Shown piece by piece: positions 12,755-47,415 of a stretch of 64,000 bases of DNA. A model generated the notes under the pieces. It saw only the letters and a program-made list of their open reading frames with translations, ran no database searches and was not told the origin of the DNA. Positions within the stretch are counted from its first letter, which is position 1, and each line of letters begins with the position of its first letter. This DNA is from a virus, in the IMG/VR virus record IMGVR_UViG_3300045988_154481. One strand, written 5' to 3'. The position numbers and the translations under genes were made by a program.

Positions 12755-13789
12755 ATGATGCTGCCTGAAGGTTCAAGTCTCTCTAACTGGGAAAAACCAG
12801 GAGGCAAAACTGGTATGGTAGTTTTGGGTTTGTTAGGTGCAGGAGGGTTGATGCTTTTTTATAAAGCTCTTCCTTTCCTGATTACCCTGGCATCCAATAC
12901 ACTGTACCTTGGACTGCTCCTGGGATTAATTGCAGGAATTATCTATCTCCTGTGTGATCCCAAGTTCAGGAAAATCTGCTCTGCCACTTACTTTATGTTA
13001 ATGAGAAAGCTGACTGGATTGGTTATCGAAATCGATCCTATTGCTATCGTGGAACAACGTATCCGTGATATGCAGAAAAAGTCAGCTGACATTAAAAAGG
13101 TAATGGGAGATCTCAGAGGTTGTATCATTCGTTCTAAGAACGATATTCAGAACGATACAAGGGAAATGCGTAATTGCATGGATGAAGCACAAGTGTCTGA
13201 GCGTAATGGAAACATTGCAATGGCAACAATTCAGAAACGCCAAGCACTTCGTCTTAAAGAATCGTTGGATGATCAGTTACTTGCTCTTAAGAACTCAGAA
13301 ATGTGGTTTGAAAAGCTTAAAAAGCTTGAAGAGTATGCAAATCTGACAATTCAGGATGTTACTAACGAAGTAAATATTCGAAAGAAAACATTCGAACGAA
13401 TCCGTGCACAGCATAAAGCTTTCAAATCTGTAATGTCTATCGTTAAGGGTGATCCTGACGAATTGGCAATGTTCACTGATGCTATGGATTTCATGGCAAA
13501 AGATATCTCTGATAAGATCGGAGAGATGGAACATGTCATTGACTCTACTACAGGTATGTTGGCTGATTTGGATGCAAAGAATGGTGTTGCCAATATGAGG
13601 GCAGAAGAACTACTGGAACGATACAACAAGTCAGGAATTGACAGTCTCTTTAATAAGTTCTCTGATGGTCGCAAGGCTATCACTGCACCCAAAGTAGGAG
13701 AGTATGTTCAGTTCCAGGAAATTCTCAAAGTCCCTGTAAATGGTAACGAAGTTTCTCCTAAATCCCTCGACGACTTCTGGGGTGAGTAA
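12755..13789 (+). CDS. Membrane-anchored coiled-coil protein. TelA-like is a possibility I could not verify.
   Basis: 344 aa with two N-terminal transmembrane helices. Confidence 0.45.
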   Translation: MMLPEGSSLSNWEKPGGKTGMVVLGLLGAGGLMLFYKALPFLITLASNTLYLGLLLGLIAGIIYLLCDPKFRKICSATYFMLMRKLTGLVIEIDPIAIVEQRIRDMQKKSADIKKVMGDLRGCIIRSKNDIQNDTREMRNCMDEAQVSERNGNIAMATIQKRQALRLKESLDDQLLALKNSEMWFEKLKKLEEYANLTIQDVTNEVNIRKKTFERIRAQHKAFKSVMSIVKGDPDELAMFTDAMDFMAKDISDKIGEMEHVIDSTTGMLADLDAKNGVANMRAEELLERYNKSGIDSLFNKFSDGRKAITAPKVGEYVQFQEILKVPVNGNEVSPKSLDDFWGE

Positions 13790-14525
13790 ATTTTTCCTGA
13801 ATAATAGGAATATTGCTATATGTATTCTTTTGAATACTGTAGTGATATTTCTATTGTCCTTTCACCGATTTCAACATGTCCTTTTGCCACTAGATGTGGC
13901 ATTTACCATATTCTTTATAATAGAGATGATTGTTAAGATTAAATGTCTTGGCAAATCATTCTTTAAGGATAAAGAATGTGTTTTTGATTTATTAATTGTT
14001 GTAGTTTCATCGATCCCATTATTTGGGTTGTTCAGTTTAGATTGGATTCAAGTAATGCGATTAACTCGAATATTTAAGAGTCTTCGATTGTTTGAATTGA
14101 TTCCTAATTACAAAAAGTTACTCATCAATTTTAGGTTAGTAATTCGAAGTTGTATTGGAATCTTAGTAGGATTATCTATTTTGATTTTTCTATTATCAAT
14201 TATTCTGTCTTCTTTATATGGAAGTATTGTTCCAGAGTATTTTGGAAATCCCCTTGAAAGTATTTATTCAGTTTTCCGATTGTTTTCTATTGAGGGTTGG
14301 TATGATATTCCAAATGCTATTGCCGAACATAGTTCCTATATAATGGGATATTTGTCTAAGTTTTTCTTATCAGGTATAGTTCTTGTTTTCGGTATATTCG
14401 GAATGGGATTTGTATCATCTATGTTTATTGATGAGGTAACTTCAGATAATAATGATGAAGTTCTACAACGATTAAGTAAGTTAGAAGAAATTTTAAAGAA
14501 AATACAAGAAAATGGCACAACTTAA
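13740..14525 (+). CDS. Voltage-gated cation channel homologue (single 6TM Ion_trans domain, BacNaV/NaChBac-like). The start is uncertain: the ORF 5' end overlaps the previous gene, and a TTG or GTG near 13830 is possible.
   Basis: S4-like segment RLTRIFKSLRLFEL, with a basic residue every third position. Pore-like motif FRLFSIEGWYD (S/T-x-E-x-W). Six hydrophobic segments, 261 aa. Confidence 0.6.
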   Translation: MVTKFLLNPSTTSGVSKFFLNNRNIAICILLNTVVIFLLSFHRFQHVLLPLDVAFTIFFIIEMIVKIKCLGKSFFKDKECVFDLLIVVVSSIPLFGLFSLDWIQVMRLTRIFKSLRLFELIPNYKKLLINFRLVIRSCIGILVGLSILIFLLSIILSSLYGSIVPEYFGNPLESIYSVFRLFSIEGWYDIPNAIAEHSSYIMGYLSKFFLSGIVLVFGIFGMGFVSSMFIDEVTSDNNDEVLQRLSKLEEILKKIQENGTT

Positions 14526-16038
14526 GCCAGGATTCAAAGTAGTCCTGATCATGGTCGCTGTAATTGCAGCATTTTTCGTAATCAAAGCCGTCGTCCCTTC
14601 CTCCTCGTCGTCGGGGCCATCCTCTACTTCGGGTCTCGGCGACATCTTCGGAGGAAAACCGACCATCAACATCGGAGTTAACACGTATGCGGGGTTTGCT
14701 CCCATCGTGTGGATTAACGGTGGTCTTCGTCCCAATGACGAGTCTATCCTGACTAAGGAGTATGGCATTCGTGCCAATATCATTATCCAGGATGATTTTG
14801 TTGCTGGACGCAACGCTTTCCTGAATGGGGATATCGACCTTATTTATTGTACTACGGATGTATTGGCCGTAGAGATGGGTGAAGGTTCCGCAATGAACAG
14901 TGCTAAGTATGTAATGATGCTTAACCGTTCTCAGGGGGCAGATGCAATGGTAGTTACCAAGAATATTCGTACCGTTGCAGATCTTAAGGGTAAAAAGATT
15001 GCAGTAGCTGAAGGAACTGCATCTCATACTCTTCTTCTGAATATTCTTGAAACGAACGGAATTAGCCAGCATGACGTAACACTTGTGAAAGTTGATAACG
15101 GTGGTGCTGCAGCTGACACATTTAAAGCTGGTCAGGTAGATGCTTGTGTTACATGGGCACCTGATGATCAAGCTTGTGTAGATGCTATTCCTGGTTCGAG
15201 AGTTCTCGTTTCAACCAAACATGCAAAAGACCTTGTAACAGATGGTCTTGTGGGAAAGGCAGAGTGGCTGGATAAGAATCATGACAATGTCAAGAAACTT
15301 ATTTCCGCAATTCTCTATGCTAATTCTACCCTGAATCAGAATCCGAATGCAGTGAAAGAAGCTTCGAAGATCTTCGCAAAAGCGTTTGGAACTGATCCTG
15401 AGTTTGCAGAATTGGGATGTGGGAGTATCTGGTTCGCTACTCTCGGTGATGAAGAAAATTTCTTTGGTATGACTTCCGATTATATGGGAATGAAGGCTGA
15501 AGAAATCTATTCAAAGATGGCTCGAACCTATGCTAGCCTTGGGCTTACTAAAAGTCCTCTGGGTTGGCGTAAAGTTTCCGACATGTCTTTCATCGAAGAG
15601 CTTTCCAGTGAGGGTACTGTGCAGGGCAATCAGGCTCCTCAACCCGCAGTTAAGTTCTCTGCTGTAACATCAGAAGTCAGGGAAAAACAGGCAATTTCTA
15701 ATAAGAAGTTGACTATTAATTTCCCTGTCAATGGTGACATCCTCGACAATGATGCTCGAGCTCTTATTGATCGAGAGTTTGTTCCGATTGCGAAGCAGTT
15801 CAACAATGCACGCGTTCGTATTGAAGGTAATACTGATAATACAGGTAATCGTGCATACAACGAGTCTCTTTCGTCTCGACGGGCTCAGGCTGTAGCTAAT
15901 TATTTAATTAATGACTACGGTTTTGATCCTAATCGGTTCATTATTGTTGGTAACGGTCCTAAGAATGCAATCCGTGACGGTGTGCAGGGTTCCAATATCA
16001 ACTATCGGACAACTGACTTTATGCTCGTAACTGAGTAA
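14512..16038 (+). CDS. ABC transporter substrate-binding protein (NMT1/NitT/TauT-like) fused to a C-terminal OmpA-like domain.
   Basis: Signal-anchor then a Ser-rich linker. C-terminal NTDNTGNRAYNESLSSRRAQAVANYL is the OmpA signature. All Trp codons are TGG. Confidence 0.65.
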   Translation: MAQLKPGFKVVLIMVAVIAAFFVIKAVVPSSSSSGPSSTSGLGDIFGGKPTINIGVNTYAGFAPIVWINGGLRPNDESILTKEYGIRANIIIQDDFVAGRNAFLNGDIDLIYCTTDVLAVEMGEGSAMNSAKYVMMLNRSQGADAMVVTKNIRTVADLKGKKIAVAEGTASHTLLLNILETNGISQHDVTLVKVDNGGAAADTFKAGQVDACVTWAPDDQACVDAIPGSRVLVSTKHAKDLVTDGLVGKAEWLDKNHDNVKKLISAILYANSTLNQNPNAVKEASKIFAKAFGTDPEFAELGCGSIWFATLGDEENFFGMTSDYMGMKAEEIYSKMARTYASLGLTKSPLGWRKVSDMSFIEELSSEGTVQGNQAPQPAVKFSAVTSEVREKQAISNKKLTINFPVNGDILDNDARALIDREFVPIAKQFNNARVRIEGNTDNTGNRAYNESLSSRRAQAVANYLINDYGFDPNRFIIVGNGPKNAIRDGVQGSNINYRTTDFMLVTE

Positions 16039-16039
16039 T

Positions 16040-16876
16040 ATGCAGTTGTTCAAAATGGGTGGGACGATCACCCATAAACAAGCATTGGCAACAGGTATCA
16101 TAGGAGCAATAGTTCTGCTGCTCCTATGGTATCTAGTTACCATGTCAGGAGAAATCATTCGTCCTCAGATTTTACCAAATCCTGTAAATGTGCTCAAGGC
16201 ATATCCAGATTTAATCTCCAACTCAGCTCTCTTTACTAATACTTGGTATACAGTAAAGCTGAACCTTATGGGATATTTCTATGCTTTAATTATTGCAATC
16301 CCTTTGGGCCTTATTATAGGATTGTTTCCCGTTACTAAAGCGTTATTTGGTAAGTACTTTGATGCCCTTCGTTATCTCCCTATACCTGCAGTGTCTGGCA
16401 TTTTTATCGCTGCTATAGGTATTGGATTCGATATGAAGGCTAGTTTTTTAGCTTTCGGCATTATTATTTACATTCTTCCTGTCGTTGTTCAACGAGTTTC
16501 TGAACTTCAGAATCCCGCTAATGATAAGGATTATGTGTATTTACAAACCATTTCAACGTTAGGTGCAACTAATTGGCAGAAATTTCGATATGTTTATTTT
16601 CCTTATGTAATGCAGCGAGTTTCCACTGATGTCATTAATCTAACTGCTATTTCTTACACTTATATAGTGATTGCAGAAACCCTTAACAAGGAAGGTGGCA
16701 TTGGTGCGCTGATAAACATAATGAGCAGACAGTCAAGAACTGCCGAAGTCTATGCACTTCTCTTCTTGATTATTGCTATCGGAATTCTCCAAGATGTCCT
16801 TCTAAAGAAATTGGATGTTGTGCTCTTTCCTTCAAAGTACAATAAGCCATCCATCAAATCCAAAATAATGAAATAA
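16040..16876 (+). CDS. ABC transporter permease.
   Basis: 278 aa with 6 predicted transmembrane segments, sitting between the binding-protein and ATPase genes. Confidence 0.6.
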   Translation: MQLFKMGGTITHKQALATGIIGAIVLLLLWYLVTMSGEIIRPQILPNPVNVLKAYPDLISNSALFTNTWYTVKLNLMGYFYALIIAIPLGLIIGLFPVTKALFGKYFDALRYLPIPAVSGIFIAAIGIGFDMKASFLAFGIIIYILPVVVQRVSELQNPANDKDYVYLQTISTLGATNWQKFRYVYFPYVMQRVSTDVINLTAISYTYIVIAETLNKEGGIGALINIMSRQSRTAEVYALLFLIIAIGILQDVLLKKLDVVLFPSKYNKPSIKSKIMK

Positions 16877-16878
16877 GT

Positions 16879-17715
16879 ATGGGGCTCTTTGATGGTTTAA
16901 CTGGATCCGTTCCAGTTCCCACATCTCGTTGTGAGGCTGTGGATGTAATTAACTTGAAAAATCTTAACCAGTCTTTTGATACTCCTAAAGGAAAGTTCAC
17001 TCTCTTTAAGGATTTTAGTCTGGATATAAAAGATTTCTCAGGAGAAGGGCAGTTTATCAGTATCTTAGGAAAGAGTGGTTGTGGTAAATCTCAGCTGCTC
17101 AAAATCATCTCTGGGCTTACACAGCCAGATTCAGGTGAAGTTCTTGTCTATGGAAAACCACAGACAGGAAAAATTCCTATGGTATTTCAGCAGTATTCTT
17201 CATTTCCATGGATGTCAGTTCTTGACAATGTAAAACTTCCGCTCATACTTCGAGGAGTTTCTGATAAAGAAGCTACAGAGAGGGCTATGAAAATGATCAA
17301 AATTGTAGGTCTGGAAGGTAATGAAACTAAATGGGGTCAATATCCTGTGTTATCAGGAGGACAGCTTCAACGAGTTTCAATGGCGCGAGCCCTGGTTGCA
17401 GATAACAAAATTCTTTTGTTAGATGAAGCCACTGGTGCATTAGATATTGTTATGAAACGAGAGATTCAGAACACCATTTTGGATATCTATTATAACGCCA
17501 AATTCGATCCTACAATCCTCAATGTTACACATAGCATTGAGGAGGCTGTGTATCTCTCAAATCGAATTTACATTTTAGCTCCTAATCCCTGTAAAGTTCA
17601 GGCTGTCATTGATGTTAACTTTGACGGTAGGAGAACTGATGCAATTCGTCAAACTGCAGCATTTGCAAATTATGTGAAACAAGTAGAACAAGTAATGTCA
17701 GAAACACATGAGTAA
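16879..17715 (+). CDS. ABC transporter ATP-binding protein.
   Basis: Walker A GKSGCGKS, signature LSGGQLQRVSMARAL, Walker B LLLDEATGALD. Confidence 0.85.
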   Translation: MGLFDGLTGSVPVPTSRCEAVDVINLKNLNQSFDTPKGKFTLFKDFSLDIKDFSGEGQFISILGKSGCGKSQLLKIISGLTQPDSGEVLVYGKPQTGKIPMVFQQYSSFPWMSVLDNVKLPLILRGVSDKEATERAMKMIKIVGLEGNETKWGQYPVLSGGQLQRVSMARALVADNKILLLDEATGALDIVMKREIQNTILDIYYNAKFDPTILNVTHSIEEAVYLSNRIYILAPNPCKVQAVIDVNFDGRRTDAIRQTAAFANYVKQVEQVMSETHE

Positions 17716-26643: not shown

Positions 26644-26724
26644 TGGCCCTGTAAGCAAAGTGGTAAAGCTGCTTATATATTCTAGGTTCATAAGTGTGTG
26701 GAGGTTCGAGTCCTTCCATGGCCA
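26644..26724 (+). tRNA. tRNA-like gene (81 nt), anticodon region irregular.
   Basis: Acceptor ggccctg/catggcc (one mismatch); D-stem agc/gct; T-arm ggagg-ttcgagt-ccttc. A candidate anticodon stem gctta/taagt would enclose a 16-nt loop. Confidence 0.3.
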
Positions 26725-26843
26725 CAAATTCTTTACAGTTTTACAATGAATAGGTAACATACAGCAAAGTAAATGGTTTAAGCAAAATTTCTCTTTTAAT
26801 TTAGCGAAAAGGTTCAAGTCCTTATTGTTACCTAGTTTTAGGA

Positions 26844-27844: not shown

Positions 27845-28276
27845 ATGACTACTAAACAATTAGGAAATATAGGTGAGGCGAAAGCTCTTGCTAAATTTGT
27901 TGAACTTCAGATACCTGTATATATTCCATTTGGAGATAATGAAAAGTCAGATTTAATTGCTGACTTTAATGGAAAATTAAATAAAGTCCAGGTAAAAACC
28001 TCTGAAGAGTGAATTGATTCAGAGAAATTTGTTATTAGCCTGGTTAGTTCAACAATGCACAGGAACTCTGGGGAGAAGCACAAATATACTCATGAAGAAA
28101 TAGATTATTTTGCGTGCTATAACCTACAAAGTAATGTATTATTTTTATTACCTATCGAAGTTGTTGAGGGACAAACTATGATTACAATAAGACACCCTTA
28201 CGTTAACGTAGGTAAAAATCAATATAAGAGAATTAATTGAGAAGATTATACTTTTGAAAAAGTATGTAAAGCATAA
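27845..28276 (+). CDS. PD-(D/E)xK-type nuclease-like protein (one in-frame TGA).
   Basis: GNIGEAKALAKFVELQIPVYIPFGDNEKSDLIADFNGKLNKVQVKT reads as D...(D/E)xK. It continues past a TGA at 28238 to a TAA at 28274. Confidence 0.4.
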
Positions 28277-28739
28277 TAAAATGATAAAGATTTATCTTGC
28301 AGGTCCGTTTTTCAATGAAAAAGAACGGCATCTTGTAGAAACTGCAGCACTCATTCTGCGTAATCAAGGATATGAAGTTATAGTTCCTATGGAACACTTC
28401 ATTGAAAATGGTGAAAAGTTAACTAATGAAGAGTGGGCACGTGAAGTGTTTGACTATGATGTAGAACAGATCAGAAATGCAGATTGTGTACTTGCAATCT
28501 ACCATGGTCATTATTCTGACAGTGGTACTGCCTGGGAGTTAGGTTTGGCATTTGCACACGATATTACTTGTATCGTTGCTCATGTTGATACAAGTAATGT
28601 AGCAAGTATCATGCCTGTTACTGGATGCTACTACAATATTAAATTCTCAGATATTGGTAAGATAGATCTGAAGAATTTACTTGATAATGAAAGGCCTTCT
28701 TCCAGAGGATTGAATGCTTGGATAGTAGAGCAGAAATAA
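28254..28739 (+). CDS. Nucleoside 2-deoxyribosyltransferase family protein. The start is possibly at 28281.
   Basis: The motifs IYLAGPFF and DSGTAWELGLAFA. Confidence 0.65.
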   Translation: MKKYVKHNKMIKIYLAGPFFNEKERHLVETAALILRNQGYEVIVPMEHFIENGEKLTNEEWAREVFDYDVEQIRNADCVLAIYHGHYSDSGTAWELGLAFAHDITCIVAHVDTSNVASIMPVTGCYYNIKFSDIGKIDLKNLLDNERPSSRGLNAWIVEQK

Positions 28740-32955: not shown

Positions 32956-33426
32956 ATGAAAATTGTAGATAATTTTATATTCTTCTGGGGAGGTTGGTTA
33001 AGTAACTTTCATCCTTGTAGAATAGTATTTGGCTCTAAAGTTTTTAAATCATCTGAACAGCTTTTTATGTATCTTAAAGCTTTGCATTTTGGTGATATAG
33101 AAACAGCAGAGAGGATTCTATTAGCAGAGACTCCAAAGGAAGCTAAAACCCTTGGTAGGGAGGTTAGAAACTTTGATGAAAAATCCTGGAATGAGGTTAA
33201 GATTCAGAAAATGTATCTTGCCTTGGAAGGTAAATTTAGCCAAAATAAAGATTTGATGGATAAACTTAAAGACCCAGCATTAAATGGGAAATTCTTTGTT
33301 GAAGCATCTCCCTTTGATAGAGTCTGGGGTATAGGCTATGATCAAGATCATGCACTTCAAAACCAATCAAATTGGGGAGAAAATCTACTTGGTAAGACTC
33401 TTACCTTTTACAGAGAATCTTTATAA
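32956..33426 (+). CDS. NADAR/YbiA family protein.
   Basis: MKIVDNFIFFWGGWLSNFHPC... The motif FFWGG..LSNF is diagnostic. The ORF-track start at 32878 lies inside tRNA-Tyr. Confidence 0.65.
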   Translation: MKIVDNFIFFWGGWLSNFHPCRIVFGSKVFKSSEQLFMYLKALHFGDIETAERILLAETPKEAKTLGREVRNFDEKSWNEVKIQKMYLALEGKFSQNKDLMDKLKDPALNGKFFVEASPFDRVWGIGYDQDHALQNQSNWGENLLGKTLTFYRESL

Positions 33427-33483
33427 ACAATTTGCGGATATTGACATCGCTCAATATCCGCTTTATTTTTAAAACTTAATAAG

Positions 33484-35182: not shown

Positions 35183-35215
35183 AGGCTCTAGTAGAAGTGC
35201 TAGAGCCTTTTTATT
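35183..35215 (+). terminator. Rho-independent terminator aggctctag-N8-ctagagcct then TTTTATT.
   Basis: 9-bp perfect stem with a T-run. Confidence 0.7.
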
Positions 35216-35645: not shown

Positions 35646-36227
35646 ATGCGATTACTTGTAGTAGTTGATATGCAAGAAGACTTCATCAGAGGTGCATTAA
35701 CGGTTCCTGGTGCTGAAGAAATAATTTCTCCTATAGAGAGATTAGTTAAAGAGTATATAACAGCAGATGATGCTGTTCTTTTTACTCGGGATACTCATTA
35801 TGAGCATAGTGATACTAGGGGATTTAGTTATGCTATGACTCGTGAAGGTAGAAATCTTCCAATTCTTCATTGCGTTTGTGGAACTGAAGGTCATAAGATT
35901 ATTAAGGAATTTAAACCTTACCTTCGTTCCTGCTATGTAATGGATAAACTAAACAGGTTTGGATTTATTCAGGACGAGTTCAATGATGCCAAGGTAGATG
36001 AAGGAGAATATTTATTTGACCTTACTGGTTACATTACAGAAATTACTCTGGTTGGTGTAGTAACTAACCTTTGTGTTATTTCATGTGCTGTAAGTTTTCA
36101 GCAAATATTCCCTAACGCAGATATCATCATAGATGCTTCCTGCTGTCGTTCTAATAACAATGAACTTCATAACAAAGCTTTAGATGTTATGGAGGGTTTA
36201 CAAATGACTATAATTAATCGTTATTAA
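35646..36227 (+). CDS. pncA: Isochorismatase-family hydrolase (nicotinamidase PncA-like).
   Basis: MRLLVVVDMQEDF...LFTRDTHY...CG is the cysteine-hydrolase fold. Confidence 0.65.
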   Translation: MRLLVVVDMQEDFIRGALTVPGAEEIISPIERLVKEYITADDAVLFTRDTHYEHSDTRGFSYAMTREGRNLPILHCVCGTEGHKIIKEFKPYLRSCYVMDKLNRFGFIQDEFNDAKVDEGEYLFDLTGYITEITLVGVVTNLCVISCAVSFQQIFPNADIIIDASCCRSNNNELHNKALDVMEGLQMTIINRY

Positions 36228-36313
36228 TTTTTTGATTTTTATAAACTTAATGTTTAGAACAGTTTGTGAAATTAAATTTTATTGATATCTTTGTAGTATA
36301 AAACTAATAAAGT

Positions 36314-36802
36314 ATGGATAAAATTTGTTCAAAATGTGGGGAAACTAAAGACATTTCACTCTTTGCTAAGGATCGGCACTCTTCTGATGGATATACTTAT
36401 TGATGTAAAGATTGTAGAAATACAGCAAATAAGAAATATCGGAAAGAAAATCCTGATAAAGTTCAGGAACATAATGAAAAGTGAAAAGATAAAAGAAAAG
36501 AATATTATAGTCTTCCTAAAAATCAAGAAAAGCTTAGAAGACATCATCTCAAGAAAATGTATAATATTACTTTGGAAGACTATGATGCTTTGTTTCAACT
36601 TCAAGGTGGTGTTTGTGCTATATGTGGAAAACCTGAAACAAGCTCAAAGGCTAGTAACTTAGCAGTAGATCATGATCACACAAATGGTAGTATTAGAGGC
36701 CTATTATGTAATAAATGTAATAGAGGCTTAGGATATTTTGAAGATGATGCAACTATTTTGTCTAAAGCTATAGAATATTTAAAAAATAAAGATAATGTTT
36801 AG
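36314..36802 (+). CDS. Recombination endonuclease VII (two in-frame TGA).
   Basis: Manual translation gives CSKCGETKD...GYTY-W-CKDCRN...HNEK-W-KDKR...CAICGKPE...DHDHTNGSIRGLLCNKCNRGLGYF. The ORF track shows only 36557..36802. Confidence 0.8.
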
Positions 36803-38279
36803 ACCGTGTTCAGTCCTCCTTTCAGATTTTTATAAGCAGGATCACCAGCGTCAATATGACCCTAGCATCACTAAGGTAGTTTCTTACTATGTACCTCGTA
36901 AAACTAGGATTCCTGAATTTGATAAGGTAGTAGTTTTTGGTATTCAAGCATTTATTGAGGAGTATCTGATTGAGTACATGAATGAAACTTTCTTTAACCG
37001 TCCCTTAGAAGAAGTTATTGCAGAATATGAATTTGTGATTTCTTCTACTATGGGAGCAGACCGTGTTAACTCGGATAAAATTAAAAACCTTCATGAATTA
37101 GGATATCTTCCTATCGAGATCTGGGCACTTCCTGAGGGATATAAAGTAGGAATGAATGTCCCCTGTATCGAGATTTCTAATACTAATCCAGAATTTGCAT
37201 GGTGTACTAATTTCATTGAAACCTTGATGCTCTCTGAGCTTTGGTATCCAATGTGTGTTGCAACTGCTGTAACTAAATATCGTAGTATCGTAAATGATTT
37301 TTATTCTAAAACTTCTGATATTTCTGGTCGTTCTGCTATTTCTGAGTTCGGATTTAGAAGTTTAGTTGGACTTCATGGTGCTATTAAAGCTTCGTGTGGA
37401 TTTTTGCTCTCTTTTAATAAGACTGCGACTATTCCTGGCATTATGTATGCTTCAAAGTATTATCATACCCCAATGTCTGTAGTAGGTGGAGGTATGGCTT
37501 CTACTGAGCACTCCGTAATGTGTAGTTCTGCTGCCATTGATGGGGATGAAAAAGTTATGATTCGACGCCTCCTTACTGAGGTCTACCCGAATGGATCATT
37601 CTCTATGGTAAGTGATTCCTATGATTACTGGAATGTTGTCGATGAGATTCTTCCATCTCTTAAGGAAGAAATTCTCAGTAGAAACGGCACTTTGTATGTT
37701 CGTGGTGACTCTGGGGATCCTGTAGAAATTGTAACTGAGACAGTTTTCTCTCTTTGGGAGACTTTTGGAGGTACTGTCAACTCTAAAGGGTATAAAGTCT
37801 TAGATCCTCATGTTCGAGCTTTATATGGTGATGGCATCACTCAGTTACGTGCAAAACAGATTTATCAGATTTTGTATGATAAAGGATTCTCTGCAGAGAA
37901 TGTTGCACTTGGTGCAGGAGGATTTTCCATGCTTTCTTACATGGATGAGTTTGGGAATGTGGATATGTTCTCTCGCGATACATTTAATGTAGCAATTAAG
38001 TGCAGCTATGTAGAACAAACCATTGATGGAAAAACTAAATCTATCATGGTCTACAAAGATCCTAAAACGGATTCAGGAATGAAGAAATCCCACAGAGGAT
38101 GTTGTGCTGTTTTCTACAACCATGTAACTGGTGAGTTTGATTGTGATGAAGGTATGACACTGAAAGAAGCTCATAATGAGCCTTTCAATTTACTTCGTCC
38201 TATCTTTTCAGATGGAAAAATGAGAGAGCAAACTACTCTCACAGAAATTCGTAGAACTCTTTGGAACGGGAAATTCTAA
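36795..38279 (+). CDS. nadV: Nicotinamide phosphoribosyltransferase (Nampt/NadV family, or the homologous Namat).
   Basis: Block-by-block similarity to NAMPT: LLSDFYKQDHQRQY, LPIEIWALPEGYKV, NTNPEFAWCTNFIETLMLSELWYPMCVAT, DFGFRS, VSDSYDYWN, RGDSGDP, NSKGYKVLDPHVRALYGDGI, IKCSYV. Confidence 0.9.
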   Translation: MFRPCSVLLSDFYKQDHQRQYDPSITKVVSYYVPRKTRIPEFDKVVVFGIQAFIEEYLIEYMNETFFNRPLEEVIAEYEFVISSTMGADRVNSDKIKNLHELGYLPIEIWALPEGYKVGMNVPCIEISNTNPEFAWCTNFIETLMLSELWYPMCVATAVTKYRSIVNDFYSKTSDISGRSAISEFGFRSLVGLHGAIKASCGFLLSFNKTATIPGIMYASKYYHTPMSVVGGGMASTEHSVMCSSAAIDGDEKVMIRRLLTEVYPNGSFSMVSDSYDYWNVVDEILPSLKEEILSRNGTLYVRGDSGDPVEIVTETVFSLWETFGGTVNSKGYKVLDPHVRALYGDGITQLRAKQIYQILYDKGFSAENVALGAGGFSMLSYMDEFGNVDMFSRDTFNVAIKCSYVEQTIDGKTKSIMVYKDPKTDSGMKKSHRGCCAVFYNHVTGEFDCDEGMTLKEAHNEPFNLLRPIFSDGKMREQTTLTEIRRTLWNGKF

Positions 38280-39049
38280 TGAAAGAAGTATATGAAGGAA
38301 TAGTTTCCTTTCTTAAGAATTATCAAGAACGTACCCATGTGAAAGGGTATGTTCTTGGTATTTCTGGAGGAAAGGATTCTACTGTAGTGGCCAAATTATT
38401 GGTAGATTCTATAGGTAAGGAAAATGTATTAGGTGTGCTAATGCCTAATGGTAAGCAAGCTGATATTGAGGATAGTTATACAGTATGTGACTTTCTTGGT
38501 ATTAACTATACTGTTGTTAATATAGAGAATGCATTTGATGAACTTATTCATCAAATTGATGTTTCGAAAATAACTACAGTGGAAGGGAATGAAGAAAACA
38601 TTCCAGTAACGAAAAAGGCTCTTACTAATGTTCCTCCTCGTATTCGTATGACTATTCTATATACTATAGCTCAGTCTGTAGGATATCGAGTAGCGGGGAC
38701 TAGTAATGCTTCAGAATTATTTATTGGTTGGGGAACTAAATGGGGAGATTTGGCATCTGATATTAATCCTATTTCTCAATTAACATGTTCTGAAGTTATT
38801 TCTTTAGGAGACTATATGGGGCTCCCATATGATCTTATACATAAGACTCCTGCAGATGGATTAACAGGAAAGTCTGATGAAGAAAATTTTGGTTTTACAT
38901 ACAAAGAGCTTGATACTCTTATTGTAAAGCAGCGAAATCTTACTTGCACAGGTAGAATACAATGTGCTTTTACTGAACAAGAATTAAAAATCTTAAAATT
39001 ACATGAAGCTGCGTATCACAAAGATCATGTAATTAAAATACATTATTAA
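38261..39049 (+). CDS. nadE: NAD+ synthetase (NadE family).
   Basis: PP-loop GISGGKDSTVVAKLL and the NadE-like C-terminal half. Confidence 0.8.
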   Translation: MEREILMKEVYEGIVSFLKNYQERTHVKGYVLGISGGKDSTVVAKLLVDSIGKENVLGVLMPNGKQADIEDSYTVCDFLGINYTVVNIENAFDELIHQIDVSKITTVEGNEENIPVTKKALTNVPPRIRMTILYTIAQSVGYRVAGTSNASELFIGWGTKWGDLASDINPISQLTCSEVISLGDYMGLPYDLIHKTPADGLTGKSDEENFGFTYKELDTLIVKQRNLTCTGRIQCAFTEQELKILKLHEAAYHKDHVIKIHY

Positions 39050-39050
39050 T

Positions 39051-39941
39051 ATGGGAAGCGGATCATGGAGTTCTAGCACATATAAAGCTTTTGCTGATAG
39101 CTATACTAAAAAATCCAGAGAAGAAATCTTTCATCAAAGATCTCTACACGAAGAAATGGATCTTACAAAAAGTAAGACACATATTCGAGAATCTAGAGAT
39201 TCTGAGGAACACCCAGAATCTCTTCCAGTTTTCATTGCATTAGATGAAACTGGTTCAATGGGTTCAATTCCTGATAAGATGATCAGGGATTATCTTCCGA
39301 AGTTAATGGATTCTATTATTGATTCTATTGGAGTTAAACACCCTCAAATTCTTTTTATGGGAGTGGGAGATCATGAATGTGATTACTACCCGTGTCAGGT
39401 AGGTCAATTCGAATCTTCAACTGTTGCAATTAATCAGTGTCTCTCTAAAATTTATTTGGAGGGTCGTGGTGGAGGTAATAGTGGAGAATCCTACTTACTT
39501 CCTTGGATTATTGCAGGAAATCATACGTCAATTGATAGTTGGGAAAAGCGAAAGCAAAAAGGATTCCTTTTTACAGTTGGTGATGAACCTACTTTGACAA
39601 GAATAAGTAGGGGAACTTTGGCATCCCTCACTGGAATGGAGTATGAGCGTGATTATACCTGGCAGGAGGCTTATGAACTTGCCTGTGAGAAATATCATGT
39701 GTTTCATATCCATGTTCGACATGGAAGTGAACATTATGATGAGGTAGTAGCTAAACAAATGAAAGAAACTCTTAGAGAAAACTTTATTGTGTGCAAACCT
39801 GATGAAGTTGTAGAAGCCATTTGTGAAGCTATGGGTAAAACTCTAAAAGGTAGCTCTTCAGTAATTGAAGAGGTTTCTGCAGAAAAAACTGTAGAAAATA
39901 CAGAATCAAAACCTAATATATTTGACATACATCGACGATAA
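39051..39941 (+). CDS. vWA-domain protein.
   Basis: The MIDAS-like motif VFIALDETGSMGS. Confidence 0.45.
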   Translation: MGSGSWSSSTYKAFADSYTKKSREEIFHQRSLHEEMDLTKSKTHIRESRDSEEHPESLPVFIALDETGSMGSIPDKMIRDYLPKLMDSIIDSIGVKHPQILFMGVGDHECDYYPCQVGQFESSTVAINQCLSKIYLEGRGGGNSGESYLLPWIIAGNHTSIDSWEKRKQKGFLFTVGDEPTLTRISRGTLASLTGMEYERDYTWQEAYELACEKYHVFHIHVRHGSEHYDEVVAKQMKETLRENFIVCKPDEVVEAICEAMGKTLKGSSSVIEEVSAEKTVENTESKPNIFDIHRR

Positions 39942-41035
39942 TGTATAATATTGTAGTGGGTTGTACGTTTGGCGACGAGGGCAAGGGTCAAGTGACTCAT
40001 GCCCTTTGTTGCGACGCTAAAAGAAAGCGTTTAAAACCTCTGGTTGTTAGATTTTCTGGAGGGCATCAAGCAGGGCATACAGTAACTACTTCATCTGGAA
40101 CAATGCATATATTTTCTTGCTTTGGATCTGGAACATTTGCTGAAGCACCTACCTATTGGATGAAGCAATGTGTTATGGATCCACTACAATGGATGCGGGA
40201 ACGAGAGGAGTTGGATTTCTTAGGATGTAATATCCCTATCCAATATTTTGATCCATATGTACAAGTAACAACTCCTTTTGACGTAATGCTGAATTCTGAA
40301 AGGAGTAAAGGTTTTACAGTAGGAAAAGGGATATGGGAGACTGTTCAGAGACAAAGAGAAGGACTAGCTTTATATGTAAAAGATTTAGCTTTTCCTCAAG
40401 TTGTAAAAATGAAGCTCCGATTAATTAGAGAATGGGCGGAAGATAGACTCCAGTTTAAGGAAACTTATTCAAGATTTACTCATGTTTTCGATAACTTAGA
40501 TTCTTTAGTACATACTTATTGTAAGATTTTTTATCCCAATATAGTATTGGAGGATACGTTATCTAAATTAGCATGGAAAGAAAAGACTTCTGTGATATTT
40601 GAGGGTTCTCAAGGAGTACTTTTGGACCCTAATATTGGATTTTCATATGAATATACCACCCCACTTCCATGTTGTCCATCATGGAACAATCTCCCATTCT
40701 TTTTAAGTGATGATCAACTAATATTTAATTTTGTATATAGATCTTATTTAACAAGACATGGTAAAGGGCCTGTTGGAGGTTCTATATTCAAGGAGATTAA
40801 TAATCCTTATGAAACAAATTTAAATAACCCTTTTCAAGGGGAATTTCAAACTTATGAATTCAATAAGGAATTAGTCTTGTATGGAATTGATCATGTTAAA
40901 TCACACTTTAATCCTGAATATAAGGTAAGGTTGATTGAAACATGTTGTGACATATGTGCAGGACATGACTTAGGAATCCCTTATAATTACTCTATCAAAA
41001 CCTGCAAAAAGAATTTTGACTCTGTATGCAAATAA
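39941..41035 (+). CDS. purA: Adenylosuccinate synthetase.
   Basis: GDEGKGQV...VVRFSGGHQAGHTV is the PurA N-terminal signature. Confidence 0.85.
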   Translation: MYNIVVGCTFGDEGKGQVTHALCCDAKRKRLKPLVVRFSGGHQAGHTVTTSSGTMHIFSCFGSGTFAEAPTYWMKQCVMDPLQWMREREELDFLGCNIPIQYFDPYVQVTTPFDVMLNSERSKGFTVGKGIWETVQRQREGLALYVKDLAFPQVVKMKLRLIREWAEDRLQFKETYSRFTHVFDNLDSLVHTYCKIFYPNIVLEDTLSKLAWKEKTSVIFEGSQGVLLDPNIGFSYEYTTPLPCCPSWNNLPFFLSDDQLIFNFVYRSYLTRHGKGPVGGSIFKEINNPYETNLNNPFQGEFQTYEFNKELVLYGIDHVKSHFNPEYKVRLIETCCDICAGHDLGIPYNYSIKTCKKNFDSVCK

Positions 41036-41832
41036 TTAACTTTTTATACCCAGAAAAGTCAGAAATAAAGTATCGAATTGATACTTATCCTGATTCCCAA
41101 TCCCATCTTGTACTTGAGTCTGAAATGGATAGACGAAAGTCCCTGCTGATCTATACTAGATTATCCAATTTGAATGATATTTGGATTCTAATGCAATTAG
41201 CGGATATTTGTCATCGTCAAGGTATCCAGATTTCCTATCTACAAATAGCTTATTTGTTTGCAGCGCGAACTGATAGATTATTTTCTTTTAATGAGGCATT
41301 AGATTTGGAGCTTGTTAAAAAATGTCTTATCTTTGTACAAGCACAGCAAATTCTAGTACTGGATCCTCATTCTAAGCGTTTGATTACAGAAGGGGTAATT
41401 GATAATGACTGGCCTGCATTCTTTGCTTTAGAACCAGGTTCTAATATTCCAGAGAATGTTTTATTCCCTGACGAAGGTGCCTATCATCGTTACAGTGGGC
41501 TTTTTGACTTTGATACGACATACTATGCTACAAAGTATAGGATTTCAAGAGATAAGTTAGAGGTAAAATTACCTTCTAGAATAAAGCCAAATACTTCTAT
41601 TCTAGTTTTTGATGACTTATGTGATGGTGGAGGAACTTTCTTTGCAATTTATAAAGCATTACAAGACATGGGAGTAACTGATGTGCATTTACGTGTCACA
41701 CATGCTATCCAAAAAGAACCTTTAGTAAAGTTGTCAGAACTTTACAAAACAATAACAATTACCAATTCTTATAAGGATTGGGATAAAGAAGAACTTCCAA
41801 ACAATATAAAAGTAATAAAAGTTTATGAATAA
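41026..41832 (+). CDS. PRPP-synthetase-like phosphoribosyltransferase (Prs, or the Prs-like ADPR-PP synthetase Adps).
   Basis: Type-I PRTase motif ILVFDDLCDGGGTF. 268 aa. Confidence 0.55.
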   Translation: MQIINFLYPEKSEIKYRIDTYPDSQSHLVLESEMDRRKSLLIYTRLSNLNDIWILMQLADICHRQGIQISYLQIAYLFAARTDRLFSFNEALDLELVKKCLIFVQAQQILVLDPHSKRLITEGVIDNDWPAFFALEPGSNIPENVLFPDEGAYHRYSGLFDFDTTYYATKYRISRDKLEVKLPSRIKPNTSILVFDDLCDGGGTFFAIYKALQDMGVTDVHLRVTHAIQKEPLVKLSELYKTITITNSYKDWDKEELPNNIKVIKVYE

Positions 41833-42475: not shown

Positions 42476-43537
42476 ATGATGTATAGTTTAGATGAAATAG
42501 GTATTTTACCTAGTTCAAAAGCCACGGATATTACAAGTCGTAGTGAGTGTAGTCCTTTAGGAGACTTAGGAACATATCCTATTTTCGTTTCTCCTATGAC
42601 ATCCGTTATTGATGAATCAAATTATCAACTTTTTACAAAGGCTGATGTTCTTCCAATCATTCCAAGACGTGTAGATAATTTACAGTTTAGACTTAATGCG
42701 TGTAACCATGTTTGGTGTGCCTTTAGTTTAAAGGAATTTGAAATGTACTTTTGTGAAGGAGAAGTCTCTGATGAATGTCCTTTAGTACTTATTGATCTGG
42801 CTAATGGTCATATGAAGAAAATTTATGATTTAGTTAAAAAAGCTAAAGAAAGATGGAGTACTATTATCATAATGGTTGGAAATATCGCACACCCAGATAT
42901 TTATTGGGAATGTTGTGACGCAGGAGTAGATTATGTTCGTGTAGGTATTGGAACAGGTAGTGTATGTACTACAGGTGTAAAAACTGGAATACATGCTTCG
43001 ATGGAATGGTTACTACGAAAGTTATCCACCTGTAAGACACTAATTAATGCTTCTCCTAAACCTATGAAAGCTCCTAAAATTATTGCAGATGGAGGCATTT
43101 CTACAATAGATAGAGCTATAAAGTGTTTAGCTTTAGGTGCTGATTATGTTATGATGGGCAAAATGTTTGCACAATGTGAGGAGGCTTGCGGGCAAACTCG
43201 GACAAAAGGACTAGATGATAATCCTGAGACGCTTAGATATTTTATGTCTCTAACTAAAGCAGACAGAGAACGAGTTATTGGACTGTACCCCAAAGAAAGA
43301 CTATACTACGGAATGGCAAGTGAACGTGGTCAAAAGGATATTTCAAACACTAAAAAGGCCGAAGAAGGAATTGAAATTTGGGTTCCTGTTGAATATACTC
43401 TTGAATCTTTACTTTCTCAATTTGATTCTGCATTAAGGTCTGCTATGTCTTATACAGGATGTAGGACTCTTGAAGAATTCAAAAATGTAAAATGGGAGTA
43501 TATGTCTCCCTCTGAAAGAAATGCTTATTACAAATAA
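42476..43537 (+). CDS. GMP reductase or IMPDH-family TIM-barrel enzyme (GuaC-like).
   Basis: VGIGTGSVCTTGV matches the IMPDH/GuaC active-site loop. 353 aa with no CBS insert. Confidence 0.7.
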   Translation: MMYSLDEIGILPSSKATDITSRSECSPLGDLGTYPIFVSPMTSVIDESNYQLFTKADVLPIIPRRVDNLQFRLNACNHVWCAFSLKEFEMYFCEGEVSDECPLVLIDLANGHMKKIYDLVKKAKERWSTIIIMVGNIAHPDIYWECCDAGVDYVRVGIGTGSVCTTGVKTGIHASMEWLLRKLSTCKTLINASPKPMKAPKIIADGGISTIDRAIKCLALGADYVMMGKMFAQCEEACGQTRTKGLDDNPETLRYFMSLTKADRERVIGLYPKERLYYGMASERGQKDISNTKKAEEGIEIWVPVEYTLESLLSQFDSALRSAMSYTGCRTLEEFKNVKWEYMSPSERNAYYK

Positions 43538-44919: not shown

Positions 44920-45137
44920 TTATGAAAAATACAGGTTTACATGATATTCTGGATGAACTAAGAGATAAAGAGTCTTTACATGTAGAAATCGGATGGCATC
45001 CTAATGGATATGCATACGCTATTTATAGAATTAATAGTCGAGATACAGAGCCATGTTATGCTTCTTCTGAAAGATACGATAATTATCGGGAATGCTTAGG
45101 AGCGGCAATTGTAAAAGCAATGAACTTAGTGGATTAA
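44877..45137 (+). CDS. Hypothetical protein (tandem paralogue B).
   Basis: See 44632..44919. A third member lies at 20902..21261. Confidence 0.45.
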   Translation: MFRGWNYKSIKYYIIMKNTGLHDILDELRDKESLHVEIGWHPNGYAYAIYRINSRDTEPCYASSERYDNYRECLGAAIVKAMNLVD

Positions 45138-45142
45138 TAAAA

Positions 45143-45574
45143 ATGAAAACACTTCTTTGGGTAGATGATGCTCGTAATCCAATGGAAGATGATTGGATGA
45201 ATTTTAGTCCAATTGGTAGAAATTGTAAAGTAATATGGGCTCAATCTTACCAAGAAGCAATTGATTTTCTTGAGAAAGAATGGCCTGATGCAATTTGTCT
45301 AGATCATGATTTAGGGGAAGAGAAATCTGGATATGATATAGCTAAGTATATTGTGGATCGGTGTATTGATGAGGGTAAAAAACTTCCTGAGTTTGCTAGT
45401 CAGTCTGCTAATCCTGTTGGAAGGGAAAATATTATTACATTATTGAGCAATTATAAGAGACATGAACTTCTAGATCATATTCAAAAAGTTATTGATTATA
45501 AACATGATTGGCGGAAAGCAGTACAAGAAGGAAAAAGTTTGCCAAAATGGAATGGAAAAATTAAAGTCAATTAA
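45143..45574 (+). CDS. CheY-like receiver-domain-like protein.
   Basis: MKTLLWVDDARNP...DAICLDHDLGEEKSGYDIAKYI fits a receiver fold. Confidence 0.35.
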   Translation: MKTLLWVDDARNPMEDDWMNFSPIGRNCKVIWAQSYQEAIDFLEKEWPDAICLDHDLGEEKSGYDIAKYIVDRCIDEGKKLPEFASQSANPVGRENIITLLSNYKRHELLDHIQKVIDYKHDWRKAVQEGKSLPKWNGKIKVN

Positions 45575-47309: not shown

Positions 47310-47399
47310 GCGCCTGACCCGAGGCGGGGGGGAGGTCTTCAAAACCTCTATGCTGTTGGTCCATCTTCAGCCCTGTGGGATCGTTACCTACCAGGCGTG
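47310..47399 (+). tRNA. Opal suppressor tRNA (anticodon UCA), 90 nt, with a 26-nt variable arm, a non-canonical T-loop (atcgtta) and G73.
   Basis: Acceptor gcgcctg (47310-16) pairs with caggcgt (47392-98). Anticodon stem gaggt/acctc (47332-36 and 47344-48) with loop cTTCAaa; the anticodon TCA is at 47339-41. T-arm gtggg-atcgtta-cctac. Variable-arm helix gctg...cagc. Confidence 0.6.
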
Positions 47400-47415
47400 C
47401 AAATAAGAAGTAAAT

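Follow-up and report, generated by a model that had tools for sequence, protein, structure and literature searches.

What would a phage gain from a gene cluster that encodes a PncA-like nicotinamidase, a NadE-type NAD+ synthetase, a relative of nicotinamide phosphoribosyltransferase (Nampt) and a relative of phosphoribosyl pyrophosphate (PRPP) synthetase (Prs)? The question is raised by positions 35646-41832 of a 64-kb stretch of DNA from the IMG/VR virus record IMGVR_UViG_3300045988_154481, the whole of which we refer to as the window (Table 1). An earlier reading of this DNA (the original prediction) took the cluster for a NAD+ salvage or reconstitution locus, possibly an anti-defence system of the NARP type, of which NARP1 (Adps plus Namat) is known from SPbetaL1, Bas63 and ICP1. 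We propose, with a probability of roughly 60%, that the cluster specifies a four-enzyme variant of NARP1, which would rebuild NAD+ from the NADase products ADP-ribose (ADPR) and nicotinamide via deamidated intermediates. The genes named in the original prediction lie intact on the plus strand where it placed them, and domain searches agree with their identities; its gene list included all of these open reading frames (ORFs) but missed a 364-amino-acid (aa) gene resembling adenylosuccinate synthetase (PurA-like).

From the endonuclease VII gene through the Prs-like gene, adjacent genes overlap or abut, and on the plus strand between 35208 and 43800 we found no terminator-like hairpin as strong as those listed in Table 1. 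Because the gene ends overlap and a strong internal terminator was not found, the genes of the cluster probably form one transcription unit. Within it, the Prs-like and transferase genes are separated by 2.7 kb, which holds the NadE, vWA-like and PurA-like genes. The true start of NadE may be the ATG at 38279.

The 268-aa Prs-like protein is distant from the housekeeping enzyme. Against E. coli Prs its score is 14 bits, compared to 24-151 bits for Prs-like proteins encoded beside Namat-like genes, and canonical Prs structures give only weak matches, the best at 40 bits. It falls under every NCBIfam cut-off for Prs, as does the experimentally verified Adps of SPbetaL1, with which it shares 26% identity. 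Identity reaches 35-37% with Prs-like proteins of crAss-like and Lak phages; in the crAss-like phages cr85_1 and DAC15, this relative adjoins a Namat-like gene with Glu215 and the classical clamp motif (transferase residues are numbered here as in SPbetaL1 Namat). The PP loop of the window protein, DDLCDGGGTF, is closer to that of ICP1 Adps (D212-D213-I214-C215-D216-x-A218-A219-S220-F221), in which the donor loop is remodelled, than to the loop of canonical Prs (DDMIDTGGTL in E. coli). The catalytic Lys, His and Arg-x-Asp-Arg elements are kept. The C-terminus is short: 64 residues follow the PP loop, where E. coli Prs has 87, and the protein lacks the C-terminal helices of Prs. In neighbour-joining trees built without bootstrap from trimmed MAFFT alignments, with E. 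coli Prs as the sole canonical Prs outgroup, the phage Prs-like proteins form a single clade far from that outgroup, and the window protein falls in the crAss-like branch. Judged from its sequence, the protein belongs to the phage Adps clade and not to housekeeping Prs.

The 494-aa transferase, in turn, is much nearer in sequence to Namat than to cellular Nampt. A PDB search returned SPbetaL1 Namat at 375 bits (9w5x; also 9w5w), 9ke8 at 294 bits and the human and Xanthomonas Nampt at ~195 bits, and in a neighbour-joining tree drawn without a cellular Nampt outgroup the protein lies in a sister clade to the Namat proteins that carry Asp or Glu at position 215. Its catalytic core is conserved (D13, Y15, F189, R192, H245, R306, D308, R399 and D400), and so are both clamp residues, R40 and F392. 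In Namat, mutating these two residues together lowers NAD+ synthesis from ADPR pyrophosphate (ADPR-PP) by ~17-fold and spares the activity with PRPP; the published rule for the clamp loop is a stacking Arg, Lys or Tyr at the R40 position. Position 392 is Ala in Xanthomonas Nampt and Gln in 9ke8. By curated models it is not a PncB-type nicotinate phosphoribosyltransferase, the protein scoring 31-37 bits against the PncB models TIGR01513, NF006696 and NF009131, whose cut-offs are 297-503. The only NCBIfam model that it passes is NF006629, which SPbetaL1 Namat passes too.

Among the ~83 ORFs of the window, which covers 64 kb of a ~170-kb genome, there is no match to NMN adenylyltransferase (NMNAT; PF01467) or Nudix (PF00293). 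Because the window lacks an NMNAT and carries an Adps-clade and a Namat-like protein, a NARP1-type pathway is better supported than NARP2, as the original prediction had favoured. The arrangement that it named as the contrary case, a canonical NadV and a housekeeping Prs with an NMNAT encoded elsewhere, is not what the scores above and the search of the 64-kb window returned. NARP2 (the Nampt plus NMNAT/Nudix of KVP40) and NARP3 (PnuC plus NadR) likewise restore NAD+ with phage-encoded enzymes; they have no Prs-like partner, and we set both aside, since no NMNAT, Nudix, PnuC or NadR appears among the Pfam matches in the window.

In its base pocket, the transferase departs from Namat. The original prediction called the protein a clear nicotinamide phosphoribosyltransferase homologue; this holds for the family, but the protein is not a plain nicotinamide enzyme, as Asp215 (Asp219 in human Nampt) is replaced by Ala and A242 by Ser. 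In human Nampt, Asp219 hydrogen-bonds the amide of nicotinamide and defines nicotinamide specificity. Of the 120 best database homologues of the window protein, 114 have Ala and 6 have Ser at this position. When transferases with Asp or Glu at this position are aligned with those carrying Ala or Ser, 10 of the 491 columns (97, 184, 187, 215, 235, 239, 240, 242, 271 and 304) separate the two types without overlap, and most of them surround the nicotinamide pocket; residue 242 is Ala throughout the first type and Ser throughout the second. The ribose-phosphate, AMP-phosphate, catalytic and adenine-stacking aromatic residues are the same in both. A homologue of 830 aa, which we considered as a possible gene fusion, owes its extra length to an intein inside the conserved RGD/SGDP motif.

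The PncA-like protein finds its best PDB match in the yeast nicotinamidase Pnc1 (2h0r), with the Asp/Lys/Cys triad (Asp8) and the Asp-His-His metal site aligned, and it scores under the NCBIfam cut-off for the E. coli type. NadE passes TIGR00552 with 181 bits against a cut-off of 63.65; its best PDB matches are of the NH3-dependent type, and it is a single domain with the SGGxDS loop and without a glutaminase domain.

A set of PncA, Prs-like, Nampt-like and NadE genes recurs in more than 100 divergent viral contigs. MT835544 has all four, at 23-51% identity to the window proteins, the gut phage Phass-1 has a tight nicotinamidase-Prs-Nampt-x-NadE operon, and, of 75 additional IMG/VR loci whose transferases are 43-52% identical to that of the window, almost every one has the set. 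The commonest layout is PncA-Prs-transferase-NadE, with the genes abutting. Among 50,697 deposited phage records, by comparison, NadE-like genes occur in 49 and PncA-like genes in 8, nearly all of these 8 being gut-derived. Because the set recurs so widely in viral contigs and in 66 of the 80 best bacterial loci (described below), though NadE and PncA are rare in phages, the grouping of these genes is not due to chance.

The presence of PncA and NadE follows the base pocket closely. We typed each transferase at position 215, taking sampled relatives of SPbetaL1 Namat as the contrast group. The viral loci with Asp or Glu215 (n = 35) have a Prs-like gene in 34 cases, and NadE, PncA or all three partners together in none, whereas those with Ala or Ser215 (n = 110) have a Prs-like gene in 107, NadE in 105, PncA in 106 and all three partners in 100. 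With the loci dereplicated at 80% identity, the PncA/NadE link is seen in 27 of 29 Ala/Ser loci versus 0 of 25 Asp/Glu loci (Fisher 4e-13). In the ~230 loci from phages and bacteria, PncA and NadE accompany only transferases that have Ala or Ser215 together with Ser242, and neither gene occurs with an Asp/Glu-type transferase. PncA and NadE, which the original prediction regarded as non-standard extras, are obligate partners of the Ala/Ser215 transferase variant.

These observations bear directly on the simplest reading of the locus, namely that it is standard NARP1, in which nicotinamide and ADPR-PP are joined to NAD+ and PncA and NadE are mere neighbours. This reading would fit a unit that holds Adps-like and Namat-like genes but lacks an NMNAT. 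Against it, the Asp that binds the amide is Ala here, and the corresponding D215A change cuts Namat activity by ~8-fold; PncA would moreover destroy the nicotinamide that serves as substrate, and Ala/Ser215 tracks PncA and NadE across phages and bacteria, both genes being absent from every Asp/Glu215 locus. We therefore consider standard NARP1 highly improbable.

It seems more likely that the four enzymes act in series. The first, the PncA-like nicotinamidase, would convert nicotinamide to nicotinate and NH3, as its family and active site suggest. The Adps-like protein, which by clade and motif resembles the Adps of SPbetaL1 and ICP1, would convert ADPR and ATP to ADPR-PP and AMP. The Namat-like transferase with Ala215 and Ser242 could then join nicotinate and ADPR-PP to give nicotinic acid adenine dinucleotide (NaAD) and PPi, which would be a new reaction, and NadE, in keeping with its family, would turn NaAD into NAD+. 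The product of PncA is nicotinate and the substrate of NadE is NaAD, so the remaining two enzymes must turn the one into the other, and the simplest chemistry that would do so runs through ADPR-PP and then NaAD, because they are an Adps-clade pyrophosphokinase and a Namat-like transferase and no adenylyltransferase accompanies them. The NH3 released by PncA could be reused by the NH3-dependent NadE, and on balance NAD+ would be made from two NADase products for two ATP. Such a pathway would keep up NAD+ during infection, also against defences that deplete it. It is tempting to speculate that hosts salvaging through nicotinamidase deamidate nicotinamide fast, so that a transferase using nicotinate would fit the base available.

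The main rival to this pathway is a PRPP-based, phage-boosted Preiss-Handler route, in which PncA feeds nicotinate, the Prs-like protein makes PRPP, the Ala215 transferase acts as a PncB analogue to give nicotinic acid mononucleotide (NaMN), host NadD forms NaAD and the phage NadE completes NAD+. PncA and NadE bracket this route just as they bracket the proposed one, and Namat is known to retain PRPP activity in vitro. Other observations speak for ADPR-PP as the donor. In all of the four-gene modules the Prs-like protein belongs to the Adps clade, is distant from E. coli Prs and has the Adps-type PP loop and short C-terminus; with ribose-5-phosphate, no product of Adps could be measured in the original NARP1 study. 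Both R40 and F392, required in Namat for the use of ADPR-PP only, are retained by the window protein; the 80 bacterial homologues all retain R40 and have Phe (79) or Tyr (1) at position 392, and the regulator linked to the bacterial operons, NrtR, senses ADPR. NadD was not found in the ~230 related phage and bacterial loci, and a search of the window and 150 loci returned no NadD-like match and no HxGH motif. Known pncA-pncB-nadE operons can, on the other hand, lack nadD within the unit, and one lineage (L158/L159) has a 137-aa gene resembling cytidylyltransferases right after NadE. We rejected this gene as the NaMN adenylyltransferase of the module since it is confined to that lineage and occurs in no other locus. 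In the same lineage, a 206-214-kb phage-like contig, an NrtR-like winged-helix gene lies upstream and there is a DUF7487 endonuclease-like insertion.

The selectivity-clamp helix of Namat follows the 11-residue motif GSXΦXΦXΦTRD, with aromatics at positions 3 and 7. In the window protein the corresponding helix, GGFSMLSYMDEFGNVDMFSRD, has 21 residues, including a 10-residue insertion, and does not conform to this motif; the aromatic at position 3 (F392) is kept, and there is no clear equivalent of Tyr396 at position 7. In the Ser215 subclade, Arg or Lys40 is missing and position 40 is Met. With the clamp motif altered and R40 absent from this subclade, a preference for ADPR-PP over PRPP is uncertain, and both features would suit a PRPP-based route. 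The Phass-1 transferase combines a classical 11-residue clamp, GAYTYQYVTRD, with A215 and S242, so the switch in the base pocket is independent of the clamp insertion. Taking both sides together, we judge the PRPP-based route with host NadD to be unlikely, and favour the ADPR-PP route.

Several further points weigh against the ADPR-PP route. The use of nicotinate is deduced from one lost hydrogen-bonding Asp, a gained Ser and gene context. Changing this Asp in Nampt is said to permit nicotinate; reviews go no further than to name Asp219 as the residue that defines specificity. The association statistics do not count phylogenetically independent events, and the link to PncA and NadE perhaps reflects two or three origins. 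In the window, the Adps-like gene is not only remote from the transferase gene but also not an orthologue of the Adps genes found in other modules of four genes. In some close relatives (three loci: L007, L015 and L019), NadE is truncated and the Prs-like gene lost or truncated, so that the module is dispensable; it is decaying in some lineages. The route would also cost one ATP more than NARP1. To our knowledge, NadD is present in every host, so a PRPP-based route would work too.

The module is not restricted to phages. On a Clostridium sp. contig with plainly chromosomal neighbours, genes for an isochorismatase, a Prs-like protein, a Nampt-like protein, NadE and NrtR stand in a row. We scanned one genome per GTDB species and took the 80 best loci, which are mostly from gut Clostridia (Lachnospiraceae, Ruminococcus and Oscillospiraceae). 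All 80 transferases have R40, A215, S242 and an aromatic at 392; the 66 loci with all four genes have them in the order PncA-Prs-transferase-NadE, NrtR is adjacent in 51 of the 80, and NadD is present in none of the 80. NrtR is a Nudix-related repressor, released by ADPR, that controls prs-nadV and pncA-pncB-nadD-nadE operons. As Clostridia also carry the module as a chromosomal operon, frequently with a link to NrtR, it is not in its nature an invention for anti-defence; phages appear to have borrowed a bacterial operon for recycling ADPR and nicotinamide. The original prediction is partly supported, in that a NARP1-type reading of the genes is favoured; an anti-defence role in the phage is presumptive.

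This raises the possibility of ordinary auxiliary salvage, in which a bacterial recycling operon, whichever its chemistry, raises NAD+ for phage replication and has no anti-defence purpose. This alternative concerns purpose rather than mechanism and overlaps our preferred explanation. The chromosomal and NrtR-linked operons of many gut Clostridia are consistent with it, as are the assorted NAD+ synthesis genes already reported in gut jumbo phages and the loss of parts of the module in some close relatives. However, the two-gene relative, NARP1, is anti-defence and uses ADPR by experiment, and the NARP1 study reports that uninfected B. subtilis cells normally contain little ADPR; further genes for the processing of ADPR derivatives are present in the window (those for the NADAR, cREC and nucleoside deoxyribosyltransferase-like proteins). 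We regard a purely salvaging role as possible but rather doubtful. Whether a still broader account is right seems to us an even bet: that the Ala/Ser215 protein is a nicotinate ADP-ribose transferase, making NaAD from nicotinate and ADPR-PP within a self-contained pathway that bypasses NaMN and NadD, that this pathway is controlled by NrtR and widespread in gut Clostridia, and that gut phages have captured it repeatedly against NAD+-depleting immunity.

Compared to NARP1, the module would have the same presumed input, ADPR, and it shares with it an Adps-clade pyrophosphokinase, a transferase nearer Namat than Nampt, the catalytic core, R40, an aromatic at 392 and the lack of an NMNAT. It differs in having four genes rather than two, always including nicotinamidase and NadE; in having Ala or Ser215 and Ser242 where the NARP1 transferase has Asp215 and Ala242, usually with a clamp-helix insertion of 9-10 residues; and in its predicted intermediates, nicotinate and NaAD. 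The core genes of NARP1 are adjacent as a two-gene operon, whereas those of the window lie apart and those of most relatives are adjacent within the four-gene operon. With the Preiss-Handler pathway (PncA-PncB-NadD-NadE) it has in common PncA as the first and NadE as the last enzyme, deamidated intermediates and, in the bacterial versions, the link to NrtR. PncB and NadD are replaced here by the Adps-like and Namat-like pair, so that an adenylyltransferase would be unneeded, and the proposed donor is ADPR-PP instead of PRPP. The NrtR-regulated prs-nadV operons of the gamma-proteobacteria Shewanella and Acinetobacter likewise combine a dedicated Prs paralogue, a NadV-family gene and an ADPR-responsive regulator; unlike the module here, they consist of two genes and lack pncA and nadE.

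Table 1. Features of the window (positions are counted from its first nucleotide).
Feature	Positions	Strand	Match or remark
PncA-like nicotinamidase, 193 aa	35646-36227	+	PF00857 3.8e-20
Endonuclease VII, 81 aa	36557-36802	+	PF02945 1.7e-25
Namat-like type II phosphoribosyltransferase, 494 aa	36795-38279	+	NAMPT_N and NAPRTase domains
NH3-dependent NAD+ synthetase NadE, 262 aa	38261-39049	+	PF02540 4.6e-55
vWA-like protein, 296 aa	39051-39941	+	phrog_2971 1.9e-38; DxTGS motif
Adenylosuccinate-synthetase-like (PurA-like) protein, 364 aa	39941-41035	+	PF00709 5.7e-30
Adps-like Prs-family pyrophosphokinase, 268 aa	41026-41832	+	phrog_619 4.5e-37
Terminator-like hairpin, 11-bp stem followed by a T run	35183-35208	+	upstream edge of the transcription unit
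Strong terminator-like hairpin	33434-33461		
DUF2828/DUF7788 protein, 563 aa	33484-35175		phrog_850 ('RNA-binding protein'; Ro60/vWA-like)
NADAR-domain protein	32956-33426	+	PF08719 4.7e-41; own transcription unit
cREC_REC cyclic-phosphate-processing receiver domain	45092-45574		PF20274 8.5e-21
Nucleoside 2-deoxyribosyltransferase-like protein	28254-28739		PF05014 9.5e-23; weak TIR_2 match
Ion-transport protein	13740-14525		
NMT1/THI5-like substrate-binding protein fused to an OmpA-like domain	14512-16038		
ABC permease	16040-16876		
ABC ATPase	16879-17715		
Suppressor-type tRNA genes (anticodons CTA, TCA)	26645-26725 and 47310-47400		

The lineage of the window differs from the common form of the module by a rearranged gene order, by insertion of endonuclease VII and of the vWA/PurA-like pair, and by an Adps gene that comes from the branch of the crAss-like phages. 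Some 98-99% identical relatives have the endonuclease VII gene and others do not, and because PncA directly abuts the transferase gene in the relatives without it, the segment of ~36228-36794 is a mobile insertion. Endonuclease VII is outside the NAD+ pathway.

The vWA-like protein has no Pfam or NCBIfam match, and its gene is always paired with the PurA-like gene. Located between NadE and Adps in the window, the pair is also found inside the module of at least seven distant loci, at 31-36% identity, and several distant loci have it flanked by PncA and Adps; it occurs in 3 of the 29 dereplicated lineages. The three close relatives with a reduced module also lack both genes. The PurA-like protein is divergent and C-terminally short, matching PurA structures with 52-54 bits. 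It is not a genuine PurA by the curated cut-off (85 bits against 402), nor could we read it as PurZ of a 2-aminoadenine (Z) genome, as it fails the PurZ cut-off (29.5 against 300) and matched no PurZ structure; DatZ and MazZ were not specifically sought. A perfect TTGACA-16-TATAAT match is present at 39922-39949. Just downstream of the cluster, past a tRNA-Arg gene, a 353-aa protein (42476-43537) resembles GMP reductase and IMPDH and falls under all curated cut-offs; considered with the PurA-like gene, it may point to a function in purine interconversion.

The NADAR gene lies directly 3' of a tRNA-Tyr gene and ends at the strong terminator. A start at 32956 is likely since the longer ORF overlaps the tRNA. 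The protein is a possible accessory that processes ADPR derivatives, and several Ser215-type loci have a NADAR gene between the transferase and NadE, but dereplication leaves no enrichment of NADAR (5 of 29 versus 3 of 25). For this reason we rejected it as part of the module core, along with the vWA/PurA-like pair and a 139-aa protein, all of which recur in some lineages and none of which is enriched. The cREC_REC and nucleoside 2-deoxyribosyltransferase-like proteins are further candidates for an ADPR network. The DUF2828/DUF7788 gene, flanked by two strong terminator-like hairpins, forms a unit of its own outside the NAD module, and membrane transport genes are encoded by the phage at 13740-17715.

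The window, with nearly all genes on the plus strand and a G+C content of ~35%, likely belongs to a large phage genome. Relatives that are 98-99% identical are IMG/VR contigs of 140-178 kb from human-gut samples, and a megablast search of deposited phages with the nucleotide sequence gave no match. Between 8407 and 50224 there are 26 tRNA genes, including an amber suppressor (anticodon CTA) and an opal suppressor (TCA). Phass-1, a carrier of this NAD module, has been placed in the 'code 15' clade, in which late genes are TAG-recoded. Given the two suppressor-type tRNAs and the placement of Phass-1, the window phage may also recode stop codons.

NARP1, NARP2, NARP3, enzymes feeding NARP1 and bacterial NARP1 homologues have been published, and the NAD+ genes of gut jumbo phages have been catalogued by canonical pathways only; in the literature, which we covered incompletely, we found no link of NadE or PncA to an Adps/Namat pair and no description of a nicotinate-using Namat. 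If the proposed pathway is correct, it would add a new reaction and a fourth architecture to the phage pathways of NAD+ reconstitution. It would also explain why a nicotinamidase shares an operon with a so-called nicotinamide phosphoribosyltransferase, an arrangement that makes no sense under the current annotation. Present pipelines label all such genes 'nicotinate' or 'nicotinamide phosphoribosyltransferase' indiscriminately, and residues 215 (Asp/Glu versus Ala/Ser) and 242 (Ala versus Ser) provide a sequence rule for the predicted base specificity of Nampt/Namat-family genes. The bacterial operons suggest that NARP1-like chemistry arose as NrtR-controlled recycling of ADPR and was taken up by phages later. 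As the module is common in human-gut phages and Clostridia, it matters both for predicting how phages escape NADase defences and for modelling the gut metabolism of niacin and NAD.

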